A stretch of DNA of 64,000 nucleotides from Actinomycetales bacterium (lineage in GTDB: Bacteria > Actinomycetota > Actinomycetes > Actinomycetales > Microbacteriaceae): NCBI GenBank assembly GCA_038243605.1, contig JBBSQX010000011.1, forward strand, positions 2,531 to 66,530, written 5' to 3'. The first letter of the stretch is position 1. Each line of letters starts with the position of its first letter. The notes under the pieces are model-generated. The model made no database searches. It worked only from the letters and a program-made list of their open reading frames with translations, and had not been told where the DNA came from. A program made the translations under genes and the position numbers. Below, in pieces: positions 15,722 to 46,548 of this stretch.

Positions 15722-15867
15722 GGAACTTCCCCCTAAAGTTGTTCCCCCAACGACGCGACCATTACCTCGGGTACGAGAAAAGCCATCGCGTCGAATGGCA
15801 AATCTAACTCGTTCGTGTCGTTACACGCCATACCCGCTATCGGGGGGTATAGGGAGCCATGAGCTGG

Positions 15868-16578
15868 CTAAAAGGACCGAAGCACCGCGAAACCGATCGC
15901 CACGAGGCCCACAACGGAGACCACGCAGGCGAGCGCAAATCCGACGACAGCGATGACCCCGAAGCGCCGGGATGACTTTCGAACGGAGGGCACAGCGTCG
16001 GCCGGTGGCCTCGTGATCACCGCGCTCTGTTCCAAACGAGGAGTCGCTTCTGGCTGAACGGGGAGCTCCCGGGGCGCGTAGTTCTCCACCGCACCAGGCC
16101 CGGAAGCAAGGACTGCCTTCTCTGCGAACCCCGCCTCGACCGGAGGCAAGTTGATGCGCTGCCGCCCTCTGGGCCCGCGATTGGATGGCGTCTTGGGCTT
16201 AGCCCTCTTGCCGACCACCACGGTGGCATCGCCATCCGCTGGCTTACGCTTCACAGCCCGTTCGACGACTACGGTTCGTTCACCTTCATCACGGTCCACC
16301 ACGACGGTGCGTTCATTGTCGTCACGGTCAACAACCACAGTGCGATCGCTGTCACCTCGGTCGACGACGACAGTGCGTTCACTGTCGGCATTGCCTCGGT
16401 CGACGACGACAGTGCGGTCACTCTCGGCATTGCCTCGGTCGACGACGACAGTGCGGTCACTCTCACCGCGATCGACCACAACAGTGGCCTCGCTCAAGGA
16501 ATCGTCGTCTTCGCCGGCTCCAGGGCCTGGCTCTGCGGAGTCACCATGTGCGCGGTGTGACGGCTCACCCATGGTCAC
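15868..16578 (-). CDS. Tail-anchored protein carrying eight (D/E)x-TVVV-(D/E)R motifs
   Basis: 236-aa ORF with an acidic N-terminal half carrying TVVV at residues 32, 43, 56, 69, 80, 91, 102 and 119 (hand count). A basic linker follows, then a C-terminal TM (FGVIAVVGFALACVVSVVGLVAIGFAVL). Start overlaps the PP2C stop (16575-16578). Confidence 0.7.
   Translation of the reverse strand: MTMGEPSHRAHGDSAEPGPGAGEDDDSLSEATVVVDRGESDRTVVVDRGNAESDRTVVVDRGNADSERTVVVDRGDSDRTVVVDRDDNERTVVVDRDEGERTVVVERAVKRKPADGDATVVVGKRAKPKTPSNRGPRGRQRINLPPVEAGFAEKAVLASGPGAVENYAPRELPVQPEATPRLEQSAVITRPPADAVPSVRKSSRRFGVIAVVGFALACVVSVVGLVAIGFAVLRSF
16210..16491 (-). repeat. In-frame 33/39-bp tandem repeats encoding the TVVV array
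   Basis: Repeated ...cgatcgaccacaac / cggtcgacgacgacagtgcg... units, with periods of 11, 13, 13, 11, 11, 11 and 17 codons. Confidence 0.8.
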
Positions 16579-17408
16579 AGCTCGACCGTTGCGTCGTTCT
16601 TGCCCGTGTCGTACGCACCATGCGAGAGCAGTCCAGAACCCGTCATGTTGTCACTACTCGGATCGCCCCCACCCGAAATAACATCGATCACGATCACCGA
16701 AATGTTGTCGCGCCCGCCCGCCTCATTGGCGCGTTGCACCAGCGTGGAAGCCACCGACTCTGGGCGGCCACCCATCGTGAGTGTCGCCCGGATGCCTTCA
16801 TCGACGAGTTCAGAAGTGAGCCCATCTGAACAGATGAGAAGACGCTCGCCATTGATCACGGGAACAACCCAACTATCGGCAGTGCTGTCGGCGGCACCAA
16901 TCGCGCGCGTGATCACATTTCGGTCGGGGAAGGTGGCGAGATCTTCTTGCAACATCTCGCCAGCATCCACAAGCTCCTGTCCAAGCGAGTGATCGATAGT
17001 GAGCTGTTCAAGCTCGGTTCCCACGTGGCGGTACACGCGGGAGTCGCCCACATTGAAGATCAGCCAGCACGGTGCACCCTCATGCTCAATGAGAATTGCC
17101 CCGGCCACCGTGCTGCCAGCACCCCGAGTCGTCTCCGCCGCGACAGCCGCAACTTTTGCGTCAGCAGCGACAAGAGCATTTCGGATGCCCAGCAACGTTG
17201 CAAAGCCCTCCACCACCGTGTTCTCCTGGAATGCGGATATCACCGCCGCGCTTGCGCGGTCGCCAGCCTCATAACCGCCCATGCCGTCGGCAACAACGAA
17301 AACCGGAGACTCCACGAGAAAAGAGTCCTCGTTGACTTTGCGCTTGCGGCCGGTGTCACTGAGCCCCGCCACAACGAGTTTTACGCGACCGATGGTGAGT
17401 TCCGTCAT
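16575..17408 (-). CDS. PP2C-family Ser/Thr protein phosphatase
   Basis: GLSDTGRKRKVNEDSF, VADGMGG, ICSDGLT, GGRDNISVIV. 4-nt overlaps on both sides. Confidence 0.92.
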   Translation of the reverse strand: MTELTIGRVKLVVAGLSDTGRKRKVNEDSFLVESPVFVVADGMGGYEAGDRASAAVISAFQENTVVEGFATLLGIRNALVAADAKVAAVAAETTRGAGSTVAGAILIEHEGAPCWLIFNVGDSRVYRHVGTELEQLTIDHSLGQELVDAGEMLQEDLATFPDRNVITRAIGAADSTADSWVVPVINGERLLICSDGLTSELVDEGIRATLTMGGRPESVASTLVQRANEAGGRDNISVIVIDVISGGGDPSSDNMTGSGLLSHGAYDTGKNDATVEL

Positions 17409-19021
17409 GAAGGTCCGTTCTCGAAGGTGAGGCTCAAACTTACGTTCCCGAGGATGAACTGCTCTGACAGCGCTGCCGAACCACCGGCAGGCAACTCGGT
17501 TTCTTTACCGTCGGCCGCGACAAGAATGACACCATTTGTCGACGTGAGGTCGGTGATTGTCCACACCTCATCCTGAAGATCAAGTCGCGCATGGTTCTTC
17601 GACAGCGTGCGCGTCTCATCCGGAACCGCCACCAACTCGACAGAAACATCAGTGGATGTCGGCTTTCTTCCGAGCAACACCGAATTGGACTTCAACGGCA
17701 GAACGACACCGGATTCTGTCACCAGGTTCCATTGCACAAGCGGGCGACGGTCGACTACAACGGTGCGGTCGAGGTCATCATCGTCATCATCATTGTTCAG
17801 GATTCCCGAATGCTGTGAAGGAATGATCGTGGGCATCTCGGCAACATTTGCGCGGGCATCGAAAGATGAGGGCGCCTGCACCTCCGCGGTTCGCATTGTG
17901 GCCGGTGCAGCACCTGCCGACGAACGCGGCGCCCACGGGTTGTCACCGCTGAGCGGGGCTTCTGTGGCAGGAGGTTCTGCACCGAGCGGATCGGCAGCGA
18001 GCGGATCGGCATCACGGGGACCGGCAGCGAGCGGATCGGCAGCGAGCGAGCCCGCATCGCGCGGATCGGCAGCGAGCGGTTCGACACCTACGTGTTCACC
18101 AGCTGGCACCGGCACTGGCACCGGGGGCATGGGTGGCACCGTCAGGGACGGTGCTGCCGCAGGCTCAGCAAACACGGGTTCGGCGGCGGCCGGAGCAAGT
18201 ACCGGTGGCCGCACCACTGCGGGCTGTGGCACATCGAGCGGATCTACAAGCTGGGCAGTGGGCGGCATAGGTGGAGCCGGAGGGGCGGAAGGGGCAGCGA
18301 ACGGCACCTGCTGGAACGGATCCTGCTGCACAGGCGCCTGCTGGAACGGGGCATTCTGCTGCACAGGCGCCTGCTGGAACGGGGCATTCTGCTGCACAGG
18401 CGCCTGCTGGAACGGATCCTGCTGCACAGGCGCCTGCTGGAACGGGGCATTCTGCTGCACAGGCGCCTGCTGGAAGGGGGCATTCTGCTGCACAGCGGCC
18501 GGCGGGAACGGAGACTGTGTCATCGTCAATGCCATTGGAGTTGGCATTGACGTTGGCATTGGCGTTGGCGTTGCCGCCGGCGCAGCCGCCTGGTTCGCTG
18601 GCGTCATCATTCCCTGAATCCGCTCACCATAGTGCTCTGAAGCAGGTGGTGGTGCGGTGCGGGCAAGGAGGGTCGCCCACAGTGGCGGCAACAGGAATCC
18701 GAGAACCACGAGGGCTGTTCCTCGACCAAACCGTTGCCCGATGCGAATCATCGCCATTGCCTTCAAATGCAGGCCATAGAGGCTCACGATCGGCAGGAAG
18801 TAGAGAATGACGGACCAACCGGGAACTCCACCGCGCTCCAGAATGACCATCTCGTTCAGGATGGGGACCCAGCCCTTCCAGCCCTGCTCACCCAGCTTGG
18901 GGAACAGTCGAGAAAGCGCAAAGCAGTACCAAATGTAGAGCCCGAGCGGAACTATCGCCCCGAACACCACGCTTGCCACAATGATGCCAATTCCGAGCGA
19001 ACTTGACGATGAGTCCATCAC
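17405..19021 (-). CDS. Membrane FHA-domain protein (N-terminal DUF5684-like TM module, Q/P-rich repeats, C-terminal FHA)
   Basis: The N-terminal motif ...GWKGWVPILNEMVILERGGVPGW... has flanking TM helices; the family name is from memory. FHA signature: LLGRKP...TLSKNHARL...DLTSTNGVIL. DRTVVVDRR lies directly before the FHA domain. Confidence 0.85.
   Translation of the reverse strand: MMDSSSSSLGIGIIVASVVFGAIVPLGLYIWYCFALSRLFPKLGEQGWKGWVPILNEMVILERGGVPGWSVILYFLPIVSLYGLHLKAMAMIRIGQRFGRGTALVVLGFLLPPLWATLLARTAPPPASEHYGERIQGMMTPANQAAAPAATPTPMPTSMPTPMALTMTQSPFPPAAVQQNAPFQQAPVQQNAPFQQAPVQQDPFQQAPVQQNAPFQQAPVQQNAPFQQAPVQQDPFQQVPFAAPSAPPAPPMPPTAQLVDPLDVPQPAVVRPPVLAPAAAEPVFAEPAAAPSLTVPPMPPVPVPVPAGEHVGVEPLAADPRDAGSLAADPLAAGPRDADPLAADPLGAEPPATEAPLSGDNPWAPRSSAGAAPATMRTAEVQAPSSFDARANVAEMPTIIPSQHSGILNNDDDDDDLDRTVVVDRRPLVQWNLVTESGVVLPLKSNSVLLGRKPTSTDVSVELVAVPDETRTLSKNHARLDLQDEVWTITDLTSTNGVILVAADGKETELPAGGSAALSEQFILGNVSLSLTFENGPS
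18306..18493 (-). repeat. In-frame 30/33-bp tandem repeats (QQNAPFQQAPV / QQDPFQQAPV units)
   Basis: The unit ctgctgcacaggcgcctgctggaacgg(ggcatt/atc) is repeated about 6 times on the plus strand. Confidence 0.8.
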
Positions 19022-21519
19022 ACGACCTCCTTTGGACGAAAGAGCGAAAGGCCCATAGACAATCCGGCACGGGCCGGCAGATACCTAACGAAGGACCGCA
19101 GAGCTAGCGCCGCCTTGACGCGGGCAGAAAACTTCACTTCGGATGCGAGCTCAGCACGCTCCGCACGAAGCAACTCCCACGCGGCGTCCGCCGACTCACG
19201 GGTGGGCGCGTACTCCGCAAAAACTCCCGCGTCGATGATGACAGCCAGCGTGGCGGCGTTGGGTCTACCGATGACACTCGCCATGTGGCCCCTCGTGGCG
19301 TGGTCAGGAAGCTTCACACCGTAATCGAGGTACGTGTCCATCAGCTCATCCCACACCCCAACGAGACTCACTTCTGGCTCCACCGCCGACCTGCGACTCC
19401 GTCGACGCATGATCTTCAGAATCACGAGGAAGAGCAACGGCAAAAGCAAAAGCAACAGCGTCAGCGCGCCAGTACCGACAGCTTTGAGAATGGGCAGGAT
19501 GGTGTCAACCCACCCCGCGGTATCACCCGCCCCGGGGTTCAGTGTTGAAGAGTCATCACGTTGCGCGGGCGGCGGATCCAAAACCTCGGTCGTCACATCT
19601 TGCGCGACGGTGGGGTTTTGTGGCCGCTCCTCACCGGGGTTAACTCGGAACGGTGAAAGGGCATACTGCGGGCTCGCATCCGCCGCGAACCATGCCGCCC
19701 CTGACGCACGGAACTCAACCCAGGCGGTGACGTTCGCACCCGTGCACACCCCAGCGGTGCACGGTTCAACAGCGGGTTTGTCGTCATCCGACACCAACCT
19801 CGCACCCACGACGATCCGAGAATCGAAACCGAGAAACCGCGCAAGCAAGGCGGCAGCGGTAGCGAATTGCTCATCGTCACCGATCGCGGCAACAAGACTC
19901 TCTGGCTCCGCATCTTCGCCAACGGCTCGCTGCTGGTCATAGAGCGCCGTAAAAAGCTCCTCGACGCGCGCAGCAGAATGGCCGGCATACGAGGGCTGAA
20001 AAACGAAGTCAGAAGCAGCGAGGCGCTTGATCCAACTCTTCGAACTCTCGTTATTTTGAAGGGAGTGGCTCAGGTAACCGCGATCACGCAGCCGTTGAAT
20101 CAACTCGACGACACCCGCCGCCGTTCGAGGCACATCTTGTTGCTCCACCCATGCTGCAAGCGCTGGGTAGTCGTCATCACTGATCAGTGACTCACCACCG
20201 CGCACCGAACCGGCGACCTCACCGCCCACGCTGGGGGCGACGCTGATGCGGTAGGAATCTCCTGGTCGAACCCCAAAACCTCCGTCGACGCGAGGGGTCA
20301 CCACCACAGCGCTCTCGCCCTGCGAACCGACGTAAGAACCATCCGCCAGTTTCTCGGCGAGTGGGCCGGTGAAAGTCGGAGTTGAATCCATGAGGCCAGG
20401 GGTCGGAAGCCACACGCCGGAGTAGCCGTCACCGATCGTGATCGTGAACTTCACCCCGCTATTGCTGGCGCTGGGAAGCCGACGGAACTGCTGCTGCCCG
20501 GTTCGTGAACCCGGTCGAAAGACAGCACCGTCGTAGTAGCCGAGTGTCGCGAGACGCACGCGATCTACCCCGGCGAGGTCGCCATCAATTGTGAACAGCT
20601 GTTCATCGAACTTCTGCGCACTGAACCACGAGCGGTAGTCGCTCAACGGGCTCGGCTGCTGCAAAACAACCACTTCGGGGTTGACGCGGTCCCGCAGGGT
20701 TTCCCGCGGCGCCCAACCAGCGGCAGCGGGCGCGACAAGCAGACCAGCGGTGACGGCGACAACGATCAAAATTGCGGCGAACGCGCGCCGGCGCAAGCGC
20801 ATCCACACCGTTGAGTGGCTGCTCTGGCGAATATCGGTGGAGAGTGCCATCGCGCGCCGGAGTGCATTCTTTCGCTCCATTCTGGCGCGAACGATGAGCC
20901 ACACGAGTGAGACAACCACAAACAGGATGCCGAGCAGAACCTGGCGAGGTGCCGGGATCGTGAGCCCGACGACGTTCAACGGCGGGTCCGTTGTGCTTGA
21001 CCCGAAGACCGGCCCGAACGCGCACATGAGAAAGACGACGCCGACAGAAAACGACGAGTACTTGCGATGGCCGATGCTGAGCGCCGTGGCCACGATGGAG
21101 CCAACGAAGATGGTCAGGAAGAACGGAACGAGTACTGCCTGATACTCGCCCAACGGCAGCGTGAGCGTAACAATTTGTTTCCACCCCAAGACCACGCCGG
21201 TGACACCATCAAGGATTCCTTGAAGGGCACGAAGTGGGGAACTCAGCGCGACGGGAATGGCGAGGGGCACAACGGTGACGAGGTAGAGACCCGCGGCCAC
21301 GCGCGCCGTAATCCACCACCGCCACCCCAACACGCGCCCGACCACCACGAGCGCGATACCGAGCACCGCGGCCGCCACCGCGACCAAAATCATGCGGGGT
21401 GAGGCATAAACCGGCCATGCCAAACCGGTGGCAAGAGCGACCCCGATGATGACATACGCGACGTCCACGAGGAGTCTAGGAACATCCAGCTTGCCGAGCG
21501 CTGTCGTTATATTCGTCAT
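19018..21519 (-). CDS. Polytopic membrane protein with a transglutaminase-like core lacking the Cys and His of the triad
   Basis: About 6 N-terminal TM helices, then an extracytoplasmic region, then a core that aligns to the TGase motif: IGDDEQFATAAALLARFLGFDSRIVVGA ... NVTAWVEFRASGAAWFAADASP. A further TM follows near the C-terminus. The MoxR-DUF58-TGase gene order supports the call. Confidence 0.8.
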   Translation of the reverse strand: MTNITTALGKLDVPRLLVDVAYVIIGVALATGLAWPVYASPRMILVAVAAAVLGIALVVVGRVLGWRWWITARVAAGLYLVTVVPLAIPVALSSPLRALQGILDGVTGVVLGWKQIVTLTLPLGEYQAVLVPFFLTIFVGSIVATALSIGHRKYSSFSVGVVFLMCAFGPVFGSSTTDPPLNVVGLTIPAPRQVLLGILFVVVSLVWLIVRARMERKNALRRAMALSTDIRQSSHSTVWMRLRRRAFAAILIVVAVTAGLLVAPAAAGWAPRETLRDRVNPEVVVLQQPSPLSDYRSWFSAQKFDEQLFTIDGDLAGVDRVRLATLGYYDGAVFRPGSRTGQQQFRRLPSASNSGVKFTITIGDGYSGVWLPTPGLMDSTPTFTGPLAEKLADGSYVGSQGESAVVVTPRVDGGFGVRPGDSYRISVAPSVGGEVAGSVRGGESLISDDDYPALAAWVEQQDVPRTAAGVVELIQRLRDRGYLSHSLQNNESSKSWIKRLAASDFVFQPSYAGHSAARVEELFTALYDQQRAVGEDAEPESLVAAIGDDEQFATAAALLARFLGFDSRIVVGARLVSDDDKPAVEPCTAGVCTGANVTAWVEFRASGAAWFAADASPQYALSPFRVNPGEERPQNPTVAQDVTTEVLDPPPAQRDDSSTLNPGAGDTAGWVDTILPILKAVGTGALTLLLLLLPLLFLVILKIMRRRSRRSAVEPEVSLVGVWDELMDTYLDYGVKLPDHATRGHMASVIGRPNAATLAVIIDAGVFAEYAPTRESADAAWELLRAERAELASEVKFSARVKAALALRSFVRYLPARAGLSMGLSLFRPKEVV

Positions 21520-22880
21520 CGAATCGCCCCCCGCGCCATCAGATGCTTGAGGTCTCCGAGTGCGCCAATTGTCAGGACTGTCATTCCCGACATGGAATTA
21601 ACTCGCGGCTCCGCTCCCGGCACCGTGCGGATGGCCACTGCCGTCACGTTCGCAGGAAGCTGCACAGCGCAGCCCCGAAGGCGGCCGAGTTCCATCGTCG
21701 AACCGGTGACCAGAAAGGCAATCGACATTCCAGGGAACGACTGTGTCGTCAGAGCGGTCACCACGTTGAGTCGAAAGGCCCTCTCGCTGCCCTCCACCGT
21801 TGACATGCTGTCGAGGAGCGTGCGGGCGGTCACCGTTGGCAGGGTCGAGATCGACTGCAACACACTTCGGGTCAGCTCTGGCACCTCTGAACTTGTGGTG
21901 ACAATGACTTCACGGCCATCGCGTACCGCCTGAACGGCCACGGATGCTGCCGCGCTGACCGCCATCTCGAATTCGTCTTCTGAGGCGTACTCGTCGGTGT
22001 TCAAGTCAAGGACCACGGCGAGACTCGCGCGCCTGGTTTCTTCATACTGACGCACCATGAGGGTGCCTGTTTTCGCGGTTGACTTCCAGTGAATATGACG
22101 CTGGGAGTCTCCTGGCGCATACTGACGGATCGCGTGAAACGAGAGATCGCTGTCAACAATGTCGCGCGTTGGCGTTCCCTCCAAATCTTTGATGAGCCCG
22201 GCGCTGGTGCTCGGAATCGCCACAGTGACGGGGTGCACGTAAAGGCGTTCAATCTGTGGCCACGACACCTCACGACGCAAAATACCAATCGGGTCGCCCC
22301 GACCAATGGTCATCGGACCAATGTCGATAACTCCGCGACGGTGAGCCCCAATAGTGAGCTCCTCATGATGCTCTGCGGAGGCGAACAGAAGCGGCACCTG
22401 AACTTCGACGAGCCCTTCACCCACGGGGATGTCAATGACCCCTGGCAGAGAAATACGTGAGGCGCGGTTGGTGACAGAGAGTCGCGCACGCACGTCTGTT
22501 CCGGCAACAACACGGTCTTTCTCGAGGACAAGTTGCACACCGTAGTCGTGCCCGCCCAAAAGGAACGGAATGCTCAGAAGCAGAAGGGTGCCCGCGATCA
22601 CCGCGAGAGCCCACCCTTCAACCCAACCGACCGTAGCGCCAACAACGATGCCGATGACCAGCAGCGCAAGAAAGAGCCACCCAGGCGCGAGCACCGTTTC
22701 TTTGAGCCAACGGCCCGCCGCACCCACTGCTCTTGTCACCGAGCGCGACGTGCGCCGGCCCCAAAACACGCCACCCTCAACGAGACCCGTGCGGGTACTC
22801 GTGTACCTCGTGACTGTCTCCGTGCGGGTGCGGGTCAGGGTACCGGTGCGCGTCAACCGCGACTCGGTGTTTGTTCTCAT
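21516..22880 (-). CDS. DUF58-family protein (VWA-like), membrane anchored
   Basis: FHAIRQYAPGDSQRHIHWKSTAKTGTLMVRQYEETRRASLAVVLD is the DUF58 signature. Two N-terminal TMs and a Thr/Arg-rich N-terminus. Overlaps with moxR and the TGase-like gene. Confidence 0.85.
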   Translation of the reverse strand: MRTNTESRLTRTGTLTRTRTETVTRYTSTRTGLVEGGVFWGRRTSRSVTRAVGAAGRWLKETVLAPGWLFLALLVIGIVVGATVGWVEGWALAVIAGTLLLLSIPFLLGGHDYGVQLVLEKDRVVAGTDVRARLSVTNRASRISLPGVIDIPVGEGLVEVQVPLLFASAEHHEELTIGAHRRGVIDIGPMTIGRGDPIGILRREVSWPQIERLYVHPVTVAIPSTSAGLIKDLEGTPTRDIVDSDLSFHAIRQYAPGDSQRHIHWKSTAKTGTLMVRQYEETRRASLAVVLDLNTDEYASEDEFEMAVSAAASVAVQAVRDGREVIVTTSSEVPELTRSVLQSISTLPTVTARTLLDSMSTVEGSERAFRLNVVTALTTQSFPGMSIAFLVTGSTMELGRLRGCAVQLPANVTAVAIRTVPGAEPRVNSMSGMTVLTIGALGDLKHLMARGAIR

Positions 22881-23842
22881 GCCGCGCCGTTCTCCACGGG
22901 TGGTGCGACGTCGAGCAACACTTGGCCGATAACGTCGAGGGCCGTGACGCCGTCGAACTCGGCCTCTGGTTCGAGGATGAGGCGGTGCGCGAACGCTGGC
23001 ACGGCGAGAACCCGAACGTCATCCGGTGTCACGAACGTGCGCCCCTGAGACACGGCACGCGTCATGGCGAGGCGAGACAAGGCGAGCGCACCACGCACGC
23101 TCACGCCGAGCCGCACTTCGGATGCCTGGCGTGTGGCGTTCACGATGCGCATAATGTAGTCGAACAGGAGCGGGTTAACGAACGAGCCGCGCGAAAGCTC
23201 CGACATGATTTTGATGGTGTCGGGCGTGACGATGCCGGGAACTTCACGCTTCGGGTTCACCACTCCCTGCAGAATGCGCATGGTCGAGGCGTCGTCGGGG
23301 TATCCGATGGACGTTTTGATCATGAACCGGTCAAGCTGCGCTTCAGGCAACCGGTACGTTCCGGCCTGCTCGACCGGGTTCTGGGTGGCGATGACGAGAA
23401 ACGGTGAGCCGACGGGGCGGGTGACGCCGTCCACGGTGACGTTGCCCTCTTCCATGACCTCCAGCAGAGCTGACTGGGTCTTGGGGCTCGCACGGTTGAT
23501 CTCATCGGCCAGAACAACGTTCGCGAAGATCGGGCCGGCGTGAAACTCGAACTCGCCCTTCTTCTGGTCGTACACGGTGATGCCCGTGACGTCACCCGGC
23601 AGAAGGTCTGGGGTGAACTGGATGCGCGAGTTGGTGCCCGTGATCGTCTGCCCAATGGTGCGCGCAAGTGCCGTCTTACCCGTGCCGGGGAAGTCCTCCA
23701 ACAGCACGTGCCCTTCGCTGATCGCGGTGGCCAACACAAGCTCCACGATGGCGCGCTTGCCGATAATTGCCTGCTCAACGTTGTCGGCCAGCAGACTGAA
23801 TGTCTCGGCAAACCAACTGGCCTGCTCCTGGGCAATCGTCAT
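22877..23842 (-). CDS. moxR: MoxR-family AAA+ ATPase
   Basis: VLLEDFPGTGKTALAR (Walker A), LLADEINRASPKTQSALLE (Walker B / sensor), ATQNP..GTY.LPEAQLDRF. Confidence 0.95.
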   Translation of the reverse strand: MTIAQEQASWFAETFSLLADNVEQAIIGKRAIVELVLATAISEGHVLLEDFPGTGKTALARTIGQTITGTNSRIQFTPDLLPGDVTGITVYDQKKGEFEFHAGPIFANVVLADEINRASPKTQSALLEVMEEGNVTVDGVTRPVGSPFLVIATQNPVEQAGTYRLPEAQLDRFMIKTSIGYPDDASTMRILQGVVNPKREVPGIVTPDTIKIMSELSRGSFVNPLLFDYIMRIVNATRQASEVRLGVSVRGALALSRLAMTRAVSQGRTFVTPDDVRVLAVPAFAHRLILEPEAEFDGVTALDVIGQVLLDVAPPVENGAA

Positions 23843-23876
23843 AGTTGTTCCTCTCGGGATGAATCGGGTTCAGGGG

Positions 23877-26800
23877 TTATGGACCGACGGGCGGCACAAC
23901 AGGCGGGATGACCGGAGGGTCTACCGGCGGGTCGACGGGCGGATCGACTGGCGGATCTGGATCTGGCGGTATGACTGGGTCGGGTTCGTAGGAGCCAACG
24001 AATGTTGCCGCGGCCAGCATGCTGTACCCACCCGAGAATGACACCGTGTACGTGACAGTCTTCGCTGCGGCATCCAGCACCGGTACGACAGTCGCATAGG
24101 GGCTAGCGAAGTTACTCACGGTCACCATCGACGGGTCGTTTGCTTGAGCCTCGGTTAACGTGCCGGTGGGGAAAGTCACTGTCACGGTCGTGGGTGCAGA
24201 CCCAGACTCCGGGGTGATGAGCGCAGGGTTGTTTGAGCAGACCTTTTGCCCCCAAAACTTGGTTCTGCAATATTGCACAAAGATCCCGGCATCATAATTT
24301 GTCGAGTCGTTGATATTGAACGTGGTGGTAACGACACCACCAATGTTGTATTCGAGGTACCACTTATTCTTTGGGGTCGGGGCCGGTGCCTTCTCAAGCT
24401 TGTACTTCTGCACGCTACTTCCCGGTGAATCCGGTGATGACGACACCCTGTAGGTGAGATCACCGCCCGGCTGGTTCGGGCTCGGGAAGCTACTTGCCAC
24501 AGCTATCGCGGATTCCGCCCAGCCATACCCGTTCGTTGCGCAGGCTTTGATCGAATAGTCATGCTCCGTGTCCACGGTGACGGTGGAGGAAGGGCTAGAG
24601 AACTGAGCACCGGAAGCAGAAATCACGTCTCCCTCAGCCGAGCAAGTTGGTTCTGCACCATCTTCATTCCACGCGACAAAAATCTCAGACTTCTTCGAAC
24701 CGCTATTGGCGCTAAAACCTGCGCCGGTCAGGGTCACCGTCGTCGGAGTACCAGTAGCCGTTCCCGCGCTTGTGTACTTCGGGGACCCCACTGCCGTCAC
24801 AGTAAACGTGGCTTGATCTCCCACGCCGTTGCTGCCGGTGCCGCCGATCGGCGGCTGGAACTCACTAATGGGGATCACGATGAGCGTGTTGGACCCCGGA
24901 GCCAAGGTGAGGTTCGCGACCGTCACCGGCCCAGTGCGGTCAAAATCTTGACTCACATTCGTGACACGAAAACTCTTGGAATCCGCGCCGGCAGTAATGG
25001 ATAAGTCCACGCCACCGGATCCGTCCGTCGTGCGGCTGTCAAACACCGAGGTCGCAGTCAACGCCGACACCGTTGGCTTCGCGTACGCCCAAGTCTGGTG
25101 CTGCGATGTGTCGAGTGATTCGCCCACACTGTTCACCGCGCGCGCCGAATACGTGTGCGGGGCCCCGTTGACGAGGCCGGGAGCAGTGCAGGAGTACGAC
25201 GCGGGGCCGCTGGATGAACACGTGGCACCGGATGCCGGGCTGCTGCCCTCATACAAGACGACACCAGTGACCGACGGATGCGCCTGAGCGGCCTCCCCCA
25301 ACGGCACATTTACCGTGACGGACGTGCCGGTGTACCCGGTGGTCATCACGCTCGCCGGAACCTGCGGATAGCCGAGCACGTCAATCGTCAACTGCCCCGG
25401 CCCAGTGCGGCCCTGCGCATCCGCAACCGTCAAGGGAACAACGCACGCGCCGCCCACCGGGCGCGGCCCTGCTGGCCAGGTAGCGCTGACCTGCTTCTCG
25501 CCAGACAGAACGACGGTCGCCACCGGGCAGGTCACCGATGTGCCGGTGCCCACGCCCACAATCTTGAGACCGCCACCAAGCTTTCCGGCGAAGGGATCAT
25601 ATTCCCCGCCAACGCCGATGACCGTGATCGAACAGCTTGCGCTGGTGCTCACCGTGCACTGCTGGCTGAGGGTGGCACCTCGCGGGGCATCCGGTGGGGC
25701 AATACCCACCACCAACGACACGCCACCAACAAGCCCACCAAAGTTCGAGACCGCGACCTGAACGTTTTCTCTCGTGCCGGGGGCCGCATCCGCCCTCGCC
25801 GTAATCGTGATGGACCTGCCCTTTTGTTCCATCACAAACGCTGTTCCGCTCGACGACGCCGCGTAGTTGAGGAGCTTCTTGTCGCCGACACGACCGCCCT
25901 CCCAGGTGGTGAGGGCGTCGTAAAGGTCAATTGTGGCAGTTTCGCCTGGTGCAAGTGTGCGCGCAATCGTCGCGAGGATCGCCTGAGGGTCCCTCGGCAG
26001 AATCCATATTGGCACGGCGACCGTTGACCACTGCTTCTGGCCCTTGAGGCGCACCGAGAACGCGCACAAGTCATTCCACGGCGCCTCACGCCCACTGGCA
26101 TACCGCACGAGCGTTCCCGAAACGGGTTGACACGAAGCGTTGCCTCTCTGCACCACAAACGCACCGTTTGGATTAATTTCTATGTCATCTGACGGATCAA
26201 TGTCGAGCAACTTGCGCACATCAAAATCGACAGTTTTCTCTTCGGCGACCTCAATGTGCTTCTCCGTTGGCTTCACCTGCACGCGAAGATCATCGAATGC
26301 CGGGATGCGCAAGAACCCGTGTGCAGTGACATCGGCACCCGCCGCATCTTTACCGGTCAGCTCAAACGGAACAAGATCGCCGCGGGACGGAAAATCGCCA
26401 GAAATTTGTGAGCCGCTCACCTTGTATCGGTCCGCCGCGGAGCCCCAGACCGAGAGCTTCAAGCCCGAGATGACACCGGATGCCCAACGGACCTTGCCCG
26501 ACACAACATCGATGCCGCTCGCCAGCTGCACGCGGTCCTTCGCCGTCAGTACCGTGTCTTTCACCACAGGCATGTCTGGCGCTACGCTCTCGGCAACGCC
26601 CACAACGATGAGACCCTCCGCTGTGCTCGTCGAGATCGACGACTGCACGGTATAAATGAACGACTGGGTGCCGAGAGTGTCACCCGCGCGCAAAACAATT
26701 TCACCAGTCTTGAGAGAAGTTTCCGGATCGATGAGCGCGTCAAGACGTGCATACTCCGGATTCGATGCATCACCCGGTGCGTTCGGGCGAAGACCCACGA

Positions 26801-29800
26801 TCTTCAGCGTGCCCTGCGCGGGGTCGCGGTCGTTCAAGATCGGCTGAACCCTCACCGGCGTCGGCGACCCCTTCAAAACCTGAACGTAGTCGCTATAGGT
26901 GACAGGGGTGAGGTCAAGCAGTGTGGACGAGATCACACCAACATTCACCGTGCCCGAACCTGTGGCGCCGCTCGAGTCACGCACCGTGTACTCGAAAGAA
27001 ACCTGCCCGCCAGGAACGCCTCCTGAGGGAGCGGAATAGATTATGGCGCTGCCATCCGGAGAAATCGAGGGCACGCCCTTGCCCGACTTCGGAAGCTGCA
27101 CATCCGTCAACGTCACCTGGTCGCCATCAGGATCTATGCCGAAGCTCTCTACCGGAATCAGCACAGTTTGGCCCGCGTTGGCGCGCGCGTTCAACACCGG
27201 TGGCTCAGGCGCACGGTTGGAGCCGACAGCGATCACCGTCACGGTAATGGCGGCAGTGTCGACGCGGTCGGGCCTGCCCTCCATATACACCGAATAGCTC
27301 ACCGAGTACACGCCAGGAACCGTGGGAGCCAAGTAGCGAATAGATGACTCACTAGCGAACGCAAGTTCACCCGCAGCATCAGAACCCTGCACGTCGGGGT
27401 GAACTACCAACCGCTCACCGCGGGGGCTCAAATCGTTGCGCAGTACCGGAATGTCGACCTGGGTGCCCGCCCGCACGGTCGCCGAATCCGGAACCGCGAT
27501 CGGCCCAACGCCAAAAGCCGACGGAACGAGGAACACCGACACCTCGCCCGTCACGACAGCACCGCCGCCATCGCTGACCGTAATGGTGGCAGTACCGATA
27601 AAGCCGGGCTGCCCGTCGGGGGTGGAACCACTCACACGCAGTCTCGACTGTGCGACCACATTCACGTTCAGAGCCGGCGTCGAACTTGTCGCACCGGCAA
27701 CGAGGAGAACGCGCCCCGTCGTATTTTGCACGGCACCAAGAACATCGACCGTTGTATCTTCATTAGCGCGAACAAAGGCGGTGAGCGGAGCCATCGTCAA
27801 CGGGCTTCCGGAGGGGACCACCGTGAGACGGATGATGGAGGACTGCTCGCTGAGCGTCACCGCATCTTGCACCGAATAGCTGACCGTGTACTCGCCAGGA
27901 TCCGTGGCACTCACATCTACCGTGCCTGCCGCGGCATTCGGAACCACAATGAGCCCGCCGCCCGTCGTGGACGCCTGCACGGCATCCAACACGCGGTACG
28001 CACCAGACCCGCCGGTCACGTGATCGGCGATCGTCACCGTCACCTTCTGGCCAGAGCTCGACGTCACAGCAACCGGCGCAGCCTTGATTCCGGAGGTAGC
28101 GCCCACCGTGATCTCGAGTTCCTTCTCGGTCACCGCGCCAAGCGAATCAGAAACCACTACAGACAGCTTGATGATCGATGCACCCGCGTTGGGGTCACTG
28201 TGACGGAGAGCAACACTGCCATCTGACATAGGAACAACCGCAACCGGTGCGTTCGGGTCAACCTTGCGAACATCAACGAGAACGATCGGGTCGCCCTCTG
28301 GGTCAAGCCAGCCATCCATCACCGGAACAATCGCCGTACCACCTGCCGCGATTTTTGGCGTCGGCCACACCTGAACGCAGCCATCAACAGGGCACCATTC
28401 CGGTGCGGAGTTCGTGCCATCTGGGATGATCGTGAGCGTCACAGTGGCCGGGGCCGACTGCGCTTTTCCATCCGTTACGGTGTACGGGAACGTTGCCGAA
28501 CCTGAGGCGGCTTTGACCTGCACGACCGCGGTTTGATCATTGCCGACAAGCCCGAGCTGCCCGAACGCTGGGTTACTCAGGCCCGCCGAGATCGAGTCGG
28601 GAACGACCGACAACACATCTTTCTTATTCGGGTCGTGGTCATTCAGCAGCACCGGAAGAGAAACCAGTCGGCCAGCACGCACGCCGAACGTATCGGCGAC
28701 AGCGACTGGCGGTTCCTGCTGGGGAAGGTCATCGACCTTTACTGTTCCCGCCTCGTGATCATCGTCACCAAGGTCCCATTGATCGATCGGGATGGCCCTA
28801 CCGTCTGGCACAGTCCAGAGCAGCCCAGTGGACTTTTCTGCCAGAACAGCGCGTGAACCGTTGTTGAAAAAGTGGGGAACAATCACCTGCACTTCATCGA
28901 GCTGCTTGCCTTCCACGTCGATCGTGACAGTTTTTTTCGTCTCTGACGACCACAGTGACCCGCCAGAAGTGTTCAGCCATGCGGCGTACACAACTCCGTC
29001 AACCTCTGCCGGCGCTGCCGGCACACCATCACCGGTGGCAAGAGGCGTCACGGCCCCAGAGTCGAGGGCGATCGAGATGAGAGTCTTCTGGTCGGCGAGA
29101 TGAATTGTGCGACCGTCACGCGACCACGGCTGCAGCTTCGCCCCGCCACCGAGACCGGTATCTATTGCGTCTTTCTTACCCGGAAGCCACACCGCACCAT
29201 CGCCGGGGGAGCTGAGAACCCATGCGTCGCCTGCAACCGCCAGCTCTAGGCGAGCATCAGCCTTCGGAGCATTCTGCACAGCGGAAGGGTCGCCAACGAA
29301 TCGGCTTCTCTCGGCGTCAAACGTTCGCACAGTCTTCTCTTGGGAGGAGTACAACAGCACTCGACCCTCAGGAGAAAGCGCTACCGCGGTCGCCGAATAG
29401 ACGGGGCGATCCTCGCCGTCTTCTACCTCAACACTGGCGAAAGGGTCCACCGGAAAAGCGGTGGGCGGTTCACCGTTCTGGGTCGTCAACGTACTCACAA
29501 ATACCGAACCGGTATCTGTCAGATACACAAGGTAGTTACCGGAAGACAGAACTTCGCGCGTTCCGACGGGAGTGTTCTGGGCCCCGGTAAGGTCAGCAGC
29601 GTCGTCTTTCTTTTTGTCGTCTTTCGATGCGTCGCCTTGTGCCGGATCGGAGGCGGGCACCACCGGCGACCCTGCGGCCGTCAGGTTGGTGGGGTTAGCC
29701 GCATTCACCGGCCACACCTGCCGGTACCCGCTGCTGAACACCACAGCATCCGGACCAGACTGCGCGACACCCACTGGATCGGTCACAGCGCGCACCGTGT

Positions 29801-30014
29801 CGATCTCGGCAAGGTCGGTATTGACCCTCGCGTATTGGCCAGCATCTCTCGTGACCCACACGGAAGTTTCGAGCGCAGGAATCTCTTTTGCGTCGTAGCC
29901 TTCCGCAAACACTGCCAGGGTGGCGATGAGCGCGATAACAGCGGCGGCGGCAACGGCTGGGATTACTCGCCGACTGAGTTTCGGCCGCGTTTTTTTCGCA
30001 CTCTTCACGGCCAC
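23877..30014 (-). CDS. Giant (2045 aa) N-terminally anchored surface protein with beta-propeller-like, cadherin/Ig-like and FN3-like repeats
   Basis: Single N-terminal TM (VIPAVAAAAVIALIATLAVFA). Recurrent ...V(A/P)D..TVRAG..V.IPVL.ND.DP.G..L.V.. cadherin-like units. FN3-like units in the C-terminal third. Tail is PPVDPPVDPPVDPPVIPPVVPPVGP. No LPXTG motif. The GTG start overlaps the kinase stop (TAGTG). Confidence 0.85.
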   Translation of the reverse strand: MAVKSAKKTRPKLSRRVIPAVAAAAVIALIATLAVFAEGYDAKEIPALETSVWVTRDAGQYARVNTDLAEIDTVRAVTDPVGVAQSGPDAVVFSSGYRQVWPVNAANPTNLTAAGSPVVPASDPAQGDASKDDKKKDDAADLTGAQNTPVGTREVLSSGNYLVYLTDTGSVFVSTLTTQNGEPPTAFPVDPFASVEVEDGEDRPVYSATAVALSPEGRVLLYSSQEKTVRTFDAERSRFVGDPSAVQNAPKADARLELAVAGDAWVLSSPGDGAVWLPGKKDAIDTGLGGGAKLQPWSRDGRTIHLADQKTLISIALDSGAVTPLATGDGVPAAPAEVDGVVYAAWLNTSGGSLWSSETKKTVTIDVEGKQLDEVQVIVPHFFNNGSRAVLAEKSTGLLWTVPDGRAIPIDQWDLGDDDHEAGTVKVDDLPQQEPPVAVADTFGVRAGRLVSLPVLLNDHDPNKKDVLSVVPDSISAGLSNPAFGQLGLVGNDQTAVVQVKAASGSATFPYTVTDGKAQSAPATVTLTIIPDGTNSAPEWCPVDGCVQVWPTPKIAAGGTAIVPVMDGWLDPEGDPIVLVDVRKVDPNAPVAVVPMSDGSVALRHSDPNAGASIIKLSVVVSDSLGAVTEKELEITVGATSGIKAAPVAVTSSSGQKVTVTIADHVTGGSGAYRVLDAVQASTTGGGLIVVPNAAAGTVDVSATDPGEYTVSYSVQDAVTLSEQSSIIRLTVVPSGSPLTMAPLTAFVRANEDTTVDVLGAVQNTTGRVLLVAGATSSTPALNVNVVAQSRLRVSGSTPDGQPGFIGTATITVSDGGGAVVTGEVSVFLVPSAFGVGPIAVPDSATVRAGTQVDIPVLRNDLSPRGERLVVHPDVQGSDAAGELAFASESSIRYLAPTVPGVYSVSYSVYMEGRPDRVDTAAITVTVIAVGSNRAPEPPVLNARANAGQTVLIPVESFGIDPDGDQVTLTDVQLPKSGKGVPSISPDGSAIIYSAPSGGVPGGQVSFEYTVRDSSGATGSGTVNVGVISSTLLDLTPVTYSDYVQVLKGSPTPVRVQPILNDRDPAQGTLKIVGLRPNAPGDASNPEYARLDALIDPETSLKTGEIVLRAGDTLGTQSFIYTVQSSISTSTAEGLIVVGVAESVAPDMPVVKDTVLTAKDRVQLASGIDVVSGKVRWASGVISGLKLSVWGSAADRYKVSGSQISGDFPSRGDLVPFELTGKDAAGADVTAHGFLRIPAFDDLRVQVKPTEKHIEVAEEKTVDFDVRKLLDIDPSDDIEINPNGAFVVQRGNASCQPVSGTLVRYASGREAPWNDLCAFSVRLKGQKQWSTVAVPIWILPRDPQAILATIARTLAPGETATIDLYDALTTWEGGRVGDKKLLNYAASSSGTAFVMEQKGRSITITARADAAPGTRENVQVAVSNFGGLVGGVSLVVGIAPPDAPRGATLSQQCTVSTSASCSITVIGVGGEYDPFAGKLGGGLKIVGVGTGTSVTCPVATVVLSGEKQVSATWPAGPRPVGGACVVPLTVADAQGRTGPGQLTIDVLGYPQVPASVMTTGYTGTSVTVNVPLGEAAQAHPSVTGVVLYEGSSPASGATCSSSGPASYSCTAPGLVNGAPHTYSARAVNSVGESLDTSQHQTWAYAKPTVSALTATSVFDSRTTDGSGGVDLSITAGADSKSFRVTNVSQDFDRTGPVTVANLTLAPGSNTLIVIPISEFQPPIGGTGSNGVGDQATFTVTAVGSPKYTSAGTATGTPTTVTLTGAGFSANSGSKKSEIFVAWNEDGAEPTCSAEGDVISASGAQFSSPSSTVTVDTEHDYSIKACATNGYGWAESAIAVASSFPSPNQPGGDLTYRVSSSPDSPGSSVQKYKLEKAPAPTPKNKWYLEYNIGGVVTTTFNINDSTNYDAGIFVQYCRTKFWGQKVCSNNPALITPESGSAPTTVTVTFPTGTLTEAQANDPSMVTVSNFASPYATVVPVLDAAAKTVTYTVSFSGGYSMLAAATFVGSYEPDPVIPPDPDPPVDPPVDPPVDPPVIPPVVPPVGP

Positions 30015-31144
30015 TAGATGAGCCCAACCAGTTTCGCCACGACAGCCACAATAGCGACCACAACGAGTGCGACGCCTGCCCCAATTAGGGCTGGTTTCAT
30101 TCCGCCGCCCGAGCGCGCCACCTCGTGCGGCTCGACGGTGCGGCCTTTCACCACGCTCGCGCGTGCTGCCCGACGCGAATTCTTGTTCACCACGGAGATC
30201 ACCGGGCCCCGTGGAGTCGAATCAGTGAGACTGAGTGGCGCCGCAGCAGCCCACTCGGCTTGGGCGACCTCCAGCGGTGTCGGTGAAATTCCAGACTGAT
30301 ACTGGGCCAGCCGCAGTTCCTCGGCAAACGCAAACATCGACTCGAACCGCTTAGTCGGATCTTTCGACATACTCCTGGCAAAAATCGCCTCTACGCCTTG
30401 CGGAACATCTGGGCGCCCAATCGGCGTGTAAGCAGCCTTAGCCACGCGCGCAATGACGTGTGCCGACGAGTTCTTGCTGCGGTCGACATGCTCAAACGGG
30501 CTGTGCCCCGCCAGAAGCGAGTAGAGCGTTGCGCCCAGGCTCCACACCTCAGTGGCAATCGTGCCAGTAGTGGCCTCAGAAAGAACCTCCGGAGAACTCC
30601 ACGGAATCGACATCGCAAAAACTTCATTATCTTCATCGGCGTTGATTGCCGCGGCGATACCAAAGTCAGCCAAAACCGGAGACCCCATCGAGGTGATGAG
30701 AACGTTCGACGGCTTGATGTCCCGATGAAGGAGCCTCGAGCGGTGCGCGGTCTCCAACGCCGCCGCGATACGCACTCCGGCGTCAAGAACGTCGGCAAGA
30801 GAAAGACCCGCGCGCTTCATGCGCGCACTCATCGTGTCTGGGCAATACTCCATGGCCAGATAGGGACGACCGTCTGCTGAAATGGATGCTTGGTAGATAC
30901 TCACGATGGAGGGATGCGCGCTCAGGCGGGCCATGATGTCGGCCTCCGCATTGAAGGTGCGCAAAACCTCCGGGTTAATGGCATCGCTCAGAAGTACCTT
31001 CACCGCGACAACGCGGCGCGGCATGTCTTGCTCATAGAGAAATACGTCAGCAAAGCCGCCCGAGCCCAGCGGACGCACGTACGTGTAACCCGGCAGCACG
31101 GGAGGCGCAGACGGCGCGCGTTTAGCCAAGTTTTGCCCCCTCAA
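30014..31144 (-). CDS. Hanks-type Ser/Thr protein kinase, tail-anchored, no extracellular domain
   Basis: LGSGGFADVF, VAVKVL, HRDIKPSNVL, ADFGIA, WSSPE. The ORF ends right after the C-terminal TM (LIGAGVALVVVAIVAVVAKLVGLI*). The TTG start is uncertain. Confidence 0.93.
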   Translation of the reverse strand: MRGQNLAKRAPSAPPVLPGYTYVRPLGSGGFADVFLYEQDMPRRVVAVKVLLSDAINPEVLRTFNAEADIMARLSAHPSIVSIYQASISADGRPYLAMEYCPDTMSARMKRAGLSLADVLDAGVRIAAALETAHRSRLLHRDIKPSNVLITSMGSPVLADFGIAAAINADEDNEVFAMSIPWSSPEVLSEATTGTIATEVWSLGATLYSLLAGHSPFEHVDRSKNSSAHVIARVAKAAYTPIGRPDVPQGVEAIFARSMSKDPTKRFESMFAFAEELRLAQYQSGISPTPLEVAQAEWAAAAPLSLTDSTPRGPVISVVNKNSRRAARASVVKGRTVEPHEVARSGGGMKPALIGAGVALVVVAIVAVVAKLVGLI

Positions 31145-39376: not shown

Positions 39377-39502
39377 ATTTTACAGTCCCACGACGAGTTA
39401 GCGGATGTCGCCCCGCTGACTCTCAACGAAGCACCGGTCGCAGGCAAAACCTGTCGGGTCAGCACTGATCATCTGCGCTGATCGTCTGTGGCATTGCCGC
39501 TC

Positions 39503-40813: not shown

Positions 40814-40830
40814 GATGCAATTCCTTTCGC

Positions 40831-42144: not shown

Positions 42145-42602
42145 CTTATGCCCGCACCCTTCGGCTGACTCGCAAATTCAGCGGTGGCATTAGACGCCGT
42201 GGCGCCTGTTCCCGCGGTGTCTTTCGCAGTCGAAATCGTTCTCGTTTTCTCTTTCTCGGTCGCCACCGCTATCGCCGTCGGAGTTGCCATCAACGCAATC
42301 TGTGCCAAAAGTTTGGCAGCACCTTCCGAGAGCGACCCATCTGCCTTCACTAGCGCCGTGACAGTTTCGGCGATAGCAACGTGTTGCTGCTGCACGCTGT
42401 CGCTGATTGCGGTTGCGAGTTTGTAAAGATTGCCCTCAAGGGTCCCCAACCGCCAGTAGAAGTCGGACGTCACACCCTCGCTTGTACCGTGTACGGCCCC
42501 AACCCTGCAAGTCAAGCCTCCGCCGCCCGGCAGATACTCTGCGAGCAGCTTGAGCGCGTGCGCAGCTTCATCAAGATCGACGGCGATGACTTTGCCAGCC
42601 AT
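42141..42602 (-). CDS. Small helical protein of unknown function within the T7SS operon
   Basis: 153-aa ORF with an ATG start, coupled to the downstream protease gene. Ala/Thr-rich C-terminus. I can support no family assignment. Confidence 0.55.
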   Translation of the reverse strand: MAGKVIAVDLDEAAHALKLLAEYLPGGGGLTCRVGAVHGTSEGVTSDFYWRLGTLEGNLYKLATAISDSVQQQHVAIAETVTALVKADGSLSEGAAKLLAQIALMATPTAIAVATEKEKTRTISTAKDTAGTGATASNATAEFASQPKGAGIS

Positions 42603-42651
42603 GAGTGGCCCTTTCCCTACGTGACGTTAAAAACTTTGTGTCAGGCTGCAG

Positions 42652-42681: not shown

Positions 42682-42701
42682 CCGACAAAGCCTGGGTCGA
42701 A

Positions 42702-46545: not shown

Positions 46546-46548
46546 ACG

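Follow-up and report, generated by a model that had tools for sequence, protein, structure and literature searches.

Introduction

The closest described counterparts of the gene cluster analyzed here are two systems of Actinobacteria: the Schaalia odontolytica pathway for "epibiont sensing and response" (Esr) and the PFNA operon known from Bifidobacterium. This cluster consists of eight genes in a 64,000-nucleotide (nt) stretch of DNA from an Actinomycetales bacterium of the Microbacteriaceae (GCA_038243605.1, contig JBBSQX010000011.1, forward-strand positions 2,531-66,530), which we refer to as the window. All coordinates below are window positions, and residue numbers are those within each predicted protein. 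An initial annotation of this DNA had recognized a MoxR-DUF58-transglutaminase (TGase)-like triad joined to a kinase, a PP2C phosphatase, an FHA protein, and a giant surface protein, and had regarded this combination as functionally undescribed. The combination itself holds up as a conserved module; the claim that it is undescribed fails because the cluster matches the PFNA operon (PMC8430577) and the functionally studied Esr pathway (PMC13622651). Our results support a model, to which we assign a probability of roughly 75%, in which the cluster is an Esx-linked member of an Esr/PFNA family of actinobacterial surface-sensing phospho-relays.

The Esr pathway, reported by Wang et al. in a bioRxiv preprint of September 2026, senses Saccharibacteria and controls Esx secretion (PMC13622651). 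EsrA is a Sec-exported filament with 14 Ig-like repeats and an N-terminal WD40-class beta-propeller; the other parts are a MoxR protein, a vWA protein, the transglutaminase EsrD, the kinase EsrE, the phosphatase EsrF, and the FHA output protein EsrG, which has a disordered region and varies in its N-terminal part (PMC13622651). Deletion of esrA1 abolishes both the epibiont-induced proteome and transcriptome response and the phosphorylation of EsrG1, and deletion of esrD1 leads to release of EsrA1 into the medium (PMC13622651). EsrG1 is phosphorylated on threonine at T152, where a T152A substitution has a phenotype, and T263 is also a reported site (PMC13622651). The Esr1 regulon remodels the cell surface, whereas Esr2 lies inside esx operons and is needed post-translationally for secretion of AesA and AesB, with a phenotype upon esrA2 deletion (PMC13622651). 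In all, 3502 Esr pathways were reported, 40% of them beside esx genes and all within the class Actinomycetes (PMC13622651).

The PFNA operon, described by the Danilenko laboratory, comprises pkb2 (kinase), fn3 (large surface protein), aaa-atp (MoxR), duf58, plus tgm, after which some species have prpC (PP2C), a hypothetical gene, and fha (PMC8430577, PMC6803598). Co-transcription of the full set of eight was shown in B. longum GT15, and phosphorylation of the MoxR ATPase by Pkb2 has been reported for B. longum (PMC8430577).

Results

The cluster has the component set of the Esr pathway

Eight minus-strand open reading frames (ORFs) fill positions 15868-31144, with boundaries identical to those in the initial annotation, and a Pfam run on all eight products confirmed the domain names given there. 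From the first gene of the cluster to the last, they are as follows (aa, amino acids; TM, transmembrane).

30014..31144, minus strand: tail-anchored Hanks Ser/Thr kinase (EsrE/Pkb2-like), 376 aa; Pkinase, 2.9e-42
23877..30014, minus strand: giant surface protein (EsrA/FN3-like), 2045 aa; Pfam Big_9 (three stretches) and cadherin-like
22877..23842, minus strand: MoxR-family AAA+ ATPase, 321 aa; AAA_3 (1.6e-61), AAA_lid_2, bpMoxR (4e-10)
21516..22880, minus strand: DUF58 protein (vWA-type MoxR partner), 454 aa; DUF58, 3.7e-12; TM hairpin at aa ~59-111
19018..21519, minus strand: polytopic TgpA-like protein, an apparent pseudo-transglutaminase (EsrD/Tgm-like), 833 aa; Transglut_core, 1.9e-8
17405..19021, minus strand: membrane FHA protein (EsrG-type), 538 aa; DUF5684, 9.4e-11; FHA, 2e-6
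16575..17408, minus strand: PP2C Ser/Thr phosphatase (EsrF/PrpC-like), 277 aa; Pfam PP2C_2
15868..16578, minus strand: tail-anchored T-repeat protein, 236 aa; eight [DE][RA]TVVV[DEG][RK] copies at nt 16207-16491; TM segment at aa 202-236

Component for component, this is the set described for Esr, a likeness of architecture, gene order, and taxon, and every architectural feature of the Esr pathway has a counterpart in the cluster, for EsrD in family and topology. There are also differences. A phosphatase is named in Schaalia for Esr1 only, whereas the window cluster has a PP2C; the window FHA protein is a DUF5684 membrane protein; and the eighth gene, encoding the T-repeat protein, is absent from the text of PMC13622651. 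With the PFNA operon, the cluster shares the order of the first five genes and the same three further kinds of gene (PP2C, small hypothetical, and FHA), but the last three stand as prpC, hypothetical, and fha in PFNA and as fha, PP2C, and T-repeat in the window. The "hypothetical" seventh PFNA gene may be the T-repeat counterpart.

The initial annotation had also noted start/stop overlaps of 1-4 nt that link the genes and a single 34-nt gap before moxR, both of which are evident when the junctions are read directly.

30014, minus strand: kinase/giant-protein junction; TAGTG, a 1-nt overlap with one base common to stop and start
23843-23876, minus strand: giant-protein/moxR junction; the sole spacer, 34 nt, with GAGAGGAA seven bases before the ATG
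minus strand: moxR/DUF58, DUF58/TGase-like, and FHA/PP2C junctions; ATGA at all three
minus strand: TGase-like/FHA and PP2C/TVVV-gene junctions; GTGA at both
15782..15799, minus strand: terminator-like hairpin with TTTTCTCG behind it, within the 146-nt gap beyond the final gene; a consensus match only

The hairpin is the likely 3' end of the operon. A promoter scan inside the cluster was uninformative, with 2 sites against 3.4 expected, and no NCBIfam model reached its cut-off for any of nine proteins. A hydropathy scan agrees with the previous statement that MoxR and the PP2C alone lack membrane segments.

Gene order is conserved across related loci

Homologues of the TGase-like protein are numerous, with 410 found by a word-indexed search and 1765 representatives at E <= 0.001 by an exhaustive one. 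A genome scan with a 10-sequence alignment returned 472 relatives, and our locus counts are taken from the best 80 of these 472, which belong to the Microbacteriaceae, Demequinaceae, Cellulomonas, and Propionicimonas and include no Schaalia or Bifidobacterium locus. Kinase, giant protein (propeller end first), MoxR, DUF58, and TGase-like protein stood in this order in every locus with enough upstream flank (72/72), and chance adjacency of the genes is ruled out because of this conserved order. Downstream genes were counted in the 62 loci with at least 6 kb of sequence on that side. An FHA gene follows the TGase-like gene in all 62, and PP2C is present in 29, a T-repeat ORF in 42, and esx genes within the flank in 14. 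The eight genes of the cluster form one conserved, translationally coupled functional unit.

The occurrence of the cluster likewise agrees with that of Esr: it belongs to the class Actinomycetes, an ESX locus adjoins it, and esx genes are found in the flank of 14/62 related loci. Like Esr2 of Schaalia, the window cluster is Esx-linked, although in Microbacterium natoriense these eight genes lie apart from all esx genes. In more distant representatives, PP2C is found upstream of the kinase, and the TGase-like gene is followed by one for a protein with a zinc ribbon, an intrinsically disordered region (IDR), and an FHA domain, an arrangement that fits the variable EsrG architectures of PMC13622651.

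The survey contradicts the description of the PFNA operon as unique to bifidobacteria, since the window organism is a member of the Microbacteriaceae. It also bears on the model proposed for PFNA, in which the cluster senses host immune signals through binding of cytokines such as TNF-alpha by the giant FN3-type protein. FN3 fragments of B. longum do bind TNF-alpha in vitro (PMC8430577, PMC10688814, PMC12607495). However, the relatives named above are all free-living, in soil, water, or sludge, with no animal host, and the window cluster adjoins an ESX locus. Host cytokine sensing is unsuited to free-living Microbacteriaceae, and we consider it a highly improbable function for this cluster.

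Two further observations concern copy number. In two related Microbacterium loci (L002, at 18874-22535, and L006), a second giant Big_9/cadherin/fn3 gene lies a few kb downstream, followed in L006 by a second MoxR gene. In addition, many Microbacterium genomes were matched at ~35% rather than ~46% identity, which suggests that such genomes have two paralogous Esr-type clusters each, as in Schaalia.

The giant surface protein has the architecture of EsrA

The initial annotation had described a 2045-aa surface protein, and its Big_9 and cadherin-like repeats together with an N-terminal signal or anchor support this description. The N-terminus is of the Sec type, with a basic stretch, then a hydrophobic segment, then VFA-EG, and is assigned as signal or anchor by hydropathy. 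It is followed by a beta-propeller at aa ~46-415 (nt 28770-29879), by Ig/cadherin-like repeats, and by a Pro-rich C-terminal tail in which no LPXTG motif was found. An AlphaFold2 (AF2) model of residues 1-436, built with an alignment of 11 homologues, had a mean predicted local distance difference test score (pLDDT) of 81, with values >90 across most of the core, and residues 46-415 were modelled as all-beta with ~28 strands. Among the Foldseek matches listed from the PDB, the top ones are beta-propellers, such as cd1 nitrite reductase, methylamine dehydrogenase, BamB, and WD40 proteins. The combination of a Sec signal, an N-terminal propeller, Ig-like repeats, and no LPXTG is that of EsrA. 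Pfam fn3 was not detected in the window's giant protein, but a more distant locus of the family has it in its giant protein, as does the second, downstream giant gene of L002.

A MoxR protein adjoins its putative vWA-type partner, as in Esr, with the two genes overlapping by 4 nt. The MoxR protein has the Walker motifs GTGKT and VVLADE109 and exceeds the Pfam bpMoxR cut-off (39.6 bits against 27), and in the DUF58 protein the candidate metal site of the MIDAS type reads DLNTD292 and not DxSxS. A MoxR and vWA pair tied to a variable sensor, and sometimes to FHA or kinase effectors, is also found in the MoxR-vWA ternary conflict systems (PMC7159879). In those ternary systems that have a beta-propeller, however, the propeller is fused to the vWA component (PMC7159879), whereas in the window it belongs to the separate, secreted 2045-aa protein, and the DUF58 protein consists of a TM hairpin and a DUF58 region only. 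The Esr authors state that their clusters were not detected in the 2020 study of Kaur, Burroughs, Iyer, and Aravind (PMC13622651). The cytoplasmic N-terminus of the DUF58 protein (22770-22880, minus strand) is unusually rich in Thr and Arg (TRTGTLTRTRTETVTRYTSTRTG) and could be a further target of the kinase.

A complete Thr-phosphorylation set and a proposed sensing role for the surface protein

The reversible Thr-phosphorylation set proposed for the cluster is present, with kinase, PP2C, and FHA domains that all retain their motifs, and the kinase and phosphatase pair corresponds to that of Esr (Pkinase and PP2C_2, catalytic motifs intact). In the kinase these motifs are VAVK46, HRDIKPSN140, DFG160, and SPE184. 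In the PP2C, which matches an Stp1-type NCBIfam model at 1.1e-53 but under that model's cut-off, they are NED26, DGMGG41, GDS121, SDG194, and RDN233. By hydropathy the kinase has a single TM segment (aa 346-376) and no extracellular domain. It has no external or sensor domain of its own and needs input from elsewhere.

This need for input helps to weigh an alternative in which the surface protein is the product of the cluster rather than its sensor. In that case, the MoxR-DUF58-TGase-like triad would assemble or remodel the giant protein, and the kinase, PP2C, and FHA protein would only regulate this process. MoxR ATPases are generally assembly or maturation chaperones, and the reported phosphorylation of MoxR by Pkb2 would fit with such regulation (PMC8430577). 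Loss of EsrD releases EsrA, and therefore the triad affects surface retention (PMC13622651). On the other hand, the esrA1 deletion phenotype, in which both the response and EsrG1 phosphorylation are abolished, places the surface protein upstream of the kinase (PMC13622651), and a kinase such as that of the window has to receive its signal from another component. We consider it unlikely that the surface protein is merely the product. The initial annotation had proposed phospho-regulated assembly or remodelling of a surface structure; the Esr model reverses this order, with the surface protein as sensor and phosphorylation as output, although the idea of surface remodelling survives in the effect of the Esr1 regulon.

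EsrG has two candidate counterparts, one of the order DUF5684-IDR-FHA (17405-19021) and one of the order N-domain-IDR-FHA (31214-32530). The first has, in order, a DUF5684 region containing three TM segments, a disordered stretch rich in repeats, the motif DLDRTVVVDRRP, and an FHA domain with the binding motifs GRKP451, SKNHA474, and STNG494. Its disordered linker (18303-18512, minus strand) is a DNA tandem repeat with a 33-nt period, 6.5 copies, and 89% matches, and encodes QQNAPFQQAPV units. The second candidate lies just outside the eight genes.

31214..32530, minus strand: FHA protein of 438 aa, the second of the two candidates; Pfam FHA domain spanning aa 341-421; gene 69 nt upstream of that for the kinase

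This protein has an N-terminal domain, a Pro/Lys/Glu-rich disordered region, and, at the C-terminus, an FHA domain with GRRP342, SAIH368, and STNG388, and is a possible EsrG1-type output protein. An FHA gene also stands ahead of the kinase in nine related loci (L004, L005, L008, L010, L020, L029, L045, L056, and L078). The range considered in the initial annotation leaves out this gene, as well as the same-strand continuity with the ESX locus. When the N-terminal domain was compared by profile with a PP2C alignment, as a possible pseudophosphatase like that of EsrG1, the probability was 0.06, and a single-sequence AF2 model of this domain was unusable (pLDDT 37.8).

The transglutaminase-like protein appears to be a pseudo-enzyme

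By hydropathy, the TGase-like protein has ~7 N-terminal TM segments, an external domain with the TGase-like core, a further TM segment at 673-707, and a cytoplasmic tail. A PDB sequence search with this protein by itself gave only noise, and in a profile search the best PDB match, weak at E 0.28, was 6g49, the TgpA protein of Pseudomonas aeruginosa. TgpA is likewise a polytopic membrane protein with an external TGase-like core, and more distant members of the window protein's family match Pfam TgpA_N. The TgpA gene is accompanied by those for MoxR and DUF58 proteins.

TgpA carries the annotation of an active protein-glutamine gamma-glutamyltransferase, whereas the window family has no catalytic Cys and almost never the His. 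In the alignment with 6g49, the Cys position is D549 and the His position T598, with the Asp retained as D614, so the Cys-His-Asp triad of active transglutaminase-like enzymes (Transglut_core) is not found in the window protein and the label "pseudo-TGase" of the initial annotation is correct. We surveyed 127 full-length representatives of 50%-identity clusters. At the Cys position, Asp is found in 105 of them, Ala in 9, Gln in 6, Glu in 6, and Gly in 1, with Cys in none; at the His position, His occurs once. The sequence around the Cys position, GD[DAQE]EQ[FY]A, is nearly invariant. The "transglutaminase" of the whole family thus appears to be a pseudo-enzyme.

These residues matter for how the surface filament is held. 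In TGase family and membrane topology the window protein matches EsrD, for which covalent linkage has been proposed (PMC13622651), but the catalytic Cys and His are absent here. In this part of the family at least, the missing residues argue against the transamidation role suggested for EsrD, and from their absence we infer that the filament would be retained by binding and not by transamidation.

A tail-anchored T-repeat protein shares a motif with the FHA protein

The cluster's last gene encodes a protein with no match to a Pfam family. The eightfold TVVV repeat described for it is real at both the protein and DNA levels, with tandem repeats of period 33/39 nt at 16277-16464. A search for [DE].T[VI][VI][VI][DEG][RK] in six frames of the 64 kb returned nine instances, eight in the T-repeat gene and one in the adjacent FHA gene. 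The latter is DLDRTVVVDRRP at nt 17747-17770, ~10 aa ahead of the first FHA strand. Among the four FHA proteins in and beside the ESX locus, only that at 17405-19021 has the DRTVVVDR motif.

Both features recur in the related loci. The T-repeat family comprises 133 unnamed proteins, none with a Pfam domain, and the C-terminal TM segment is present in 120/120 members listed, with 1-11 motif copies. The family-wide motif is [DE][DE]xTVVV[DE]R, with variants that include DDETRLVRR, DDETLLAARR, and DDATRLASRR. Over 545 instances, D/E occupies position -2 in 91%, T stands at 0, V occupies +1 to +3 in 85-95%, D/E occupies +4 in 80%, and R occupies +5 in 95%; T at 0 and V at +1 to +3 were fixed or constrained by the search pattern, whereas +4 and +5 were free. 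A tail-anchored T-repeat ORF lies downstream in 25/29 related loci with PP2C and in 17/33 without it, directly after PP2C in the loci inspected. In nearly all FHA proteins examined from related loci, the motif lies ~10 residues ahead of the first FHA strand.

The two sets of motifs also vary together. Within a locus, the pre-FHA motif and the repeats were identical at 2.61 of 6 positions, compared with 2.17 +/- 0.11 for shuffled pairings, and 0/5000 shuffles reached 2.61, a figure that has no kinship correction and is inflated by the relatedness of the genomes. As an example, TVLAARR is found in both proteins in four loci (L029, L031, L040, and L045). In these same four loci, all from Microbacterium, a kinase-like domain is joined on the N-terminal side to the T-repeats and tail anchor (L029 14621-16099, L031 14492-15940, L040 14492-15943, and L045 14681-16162). 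This domain is probably a pseudokinase, since its catalytic loop reads HGRIRIEN in place of HRDxKxxN.

In two respects the motif resembles FHA ligands. Many FHA domains prefer pT-x-x-(I/L/V), which the hydrophobic residue at +3 fits. In GarA/OdhI, an FHA domain binds a phospho-Thr in an acidic T-x-x-hydrophobic-x-R motif (ETTSVFR), which the T-VVV-D-R motif resembles. The earlier idea that the TVVV array is a multivalent phospho-Thr ligand is plausible, and the T-repeat protein could serve FHA domains as a multivalent phospho-Thr platform. Alternatively, the T-repeat protein might be no phospho-ligand but a charged spacer or an FHA-unrelated kinase decoy, with the pre-FHA motif as a structural strand. 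The N-terminal half of the protein is in fact highly charged (among 130 residues, 31 are acidic and 21 basic), the spacing between motif and FHA domain is fixed, and phosphorylation of the repeats is a prediction from sequence. However, a spacer or decoy would not readily account for conservation of D/E at +4 and R at +5 outside the search pattern, for motif variants that change together in both proteins of a locus, or for the fit at +3. We consider this alternative unlikely, though it deserves serious attention.

The cluster adjoins an ESX locus

On its upstream side, the module continues on the same strand into a complete ESX locus, with the following features.

32590..50680, mixed strands: ESX/type VII secretion locus, adjoining and outside the module; by Pfam
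32590-36558: EccC
36558-37994, minus strand: RDD-FHA protein, the stop of which overlaps the eccC start
37991-39376, minus strand: EccD-like polytopic protein, 461 aa; ~11 hydrophobic segments by eye; no Pfam match
39503-40834, minus strand: Gly-rich AesB-like protein, 443 aa; no Pfam match
40831-42144, 43555-44955, and 47907-49406: three mycosin-type subtilases
45163-46545, plus strand: EccD; Pfam EccD and YukD
49457-50680, minus strand: second DUF5684-FHA protein

The locus also carries two WXG100 genes and EccB, with rpoC beyond it. Four FHA proteins are thus encoded in or beside one ESX locus, all on the minus strand (17405-19021, 31214-32530, 36558-37994, and 49457-50680): two DUF5684-FHA paralogues, one N-domain-IDR-FHA protein, and one RDD-FHA protein. 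In the 443-aa protein, a helical N-terminal part is followed by ~215 Gly-rich residues, GPHYVPGGPGYVPGG among them, and by a short charged C-terminus. This matches the architecture described for the Schaalia Esx effector AesB, a likeness of architecture alone.

Type IV pilus genes lie on the other side of the module, at 8845-15721 on the minus strand, and encode PilB, PilC, a PilT-like ATPase, and a pilin-like protein bearing an N-methylation motif. The PilT-like ATPase (12211-14019, minus strand) has ~200 aa of N-terminal Pro/Ala/Met-rich repeats (APMAAPTMAAP and similar) before its T2SSE domain. In three related loci (L021, L052, and L064), the module is likewise followed by PilB-like genes.

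Discussion

Our results support a model in which the cluster belongs with the Esr pathway and the PFNA operon, and from this comparison a route from the cell surface to secretion can be proposed. The 2045-aa protein would be exported by Sec, with an Ig-repeat stalk bearing the N-terminal propeller as a ligand-binding head; the architecture is that observed here, and the sensing role is suggested by analogy with EsrA1. The external domain of the TgpA-like protein would hold the giant protein at the membrane, presumably by binding. Occupancy of the filament, or load on it, might then be passed through the TgpA-like protein to DUF58 and MoxR at the cytoplasmic face, which would turn on the tail-anchored kinase. 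The kinase would phosphorylate Thr in acidic [DE]xT-hydrophobic-hydrophobic-x-x-R motifs, one ahead of the FHA domain and eight in the T-repeat protein, a step suggested by motif conservation and by co-variation within loci. FHA domains would read these phospho-sites, gather the four FHA proteins at the membrane, and gate EccC-dependent secretion post-translationally, by analogy with Esr2. Finally, the PP2C would reset the system.

A functional parallel exists in the H1 type VI secretion system of Pseudomonas, in which the Hanks kinase PpkA, the PP2C PppA, and Fha1 gate secretion post-translationally. The analogy is one of function only, as the secretion system is different, only the domains are common to both, and the Pseudomonas pathway has no multivalent repeat protein.

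Several points weigh against this interpretation. Its main weakness is that, in this organism, the steps beyond the domain assignments rest on inference or analogy. The Esr assignment itself is one of architecture, gene order, and taxon and not of measured homology, and the Esr report is a preprint that is not peer reviewed (PMC13622651). The Esx link is not obligatory, given that esx genes lie within 10 kb in just 14/62 related loci. As for the motif, both phosphorylation and FHA binding at the TVVV threonines are predictions from the protein sequences; the fixed spacing of ~10 aa between motif and FHA domain could mean a structural element instead of a phospho-site; and the co-variation figure ignores the relatedness of the genomes. 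Finally, T152 and T263 of EsrG1 are far from its FHA domain, unlike the arrangement in the window (PMC13622651).

Nonetheless, two aspects of the cluster seem to be new, as both the pseudo-enzyme nature of the TGase and the T-repeat/pre-FHA motif are absent from the text of PMC13622651. Taken together, they suggest that the Esr/PFNA family has an apparently undescribed eighth component, defined by tail-anchored T-repeats and a co-varying pre-FHA motif, and a family-wide pseudo-TGase that would hold the filament non-covalently, at odds with what is currently proposed. We advance this joint proposal tentatively and would place its chances somewhat below even. Its two parts, the pseudo-TGase status and the T-repeat protein with its FHA-common motif, are those most worth following up, and both bear on the open questions stated in PMC13622651, namely by which steps sensing leads to output and in what way Esr2 acts on Esx secretion.

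In summary, an Esr/PFNA cluster in a free-living member of the Microbacteriaceae shows that such systems are not special to gut bifidobacteria or oral Actinomycetaceae. The family-wide absence of catalytic Cys and His speaks against the idea that the sensor is enzymatically cross-linked to the envelope. The T-VVV-D-R motif, common to the FHA protein and its multi-copy partner, is a concrete candidate for both kinase target and FHA ligand. If the kinase phosphorylates the motif threonines, the T-repeat protein would be a multivalent phospho-Thr platform or sponge, and would set the threshold or localization of FHA signaling to the type VII machine.

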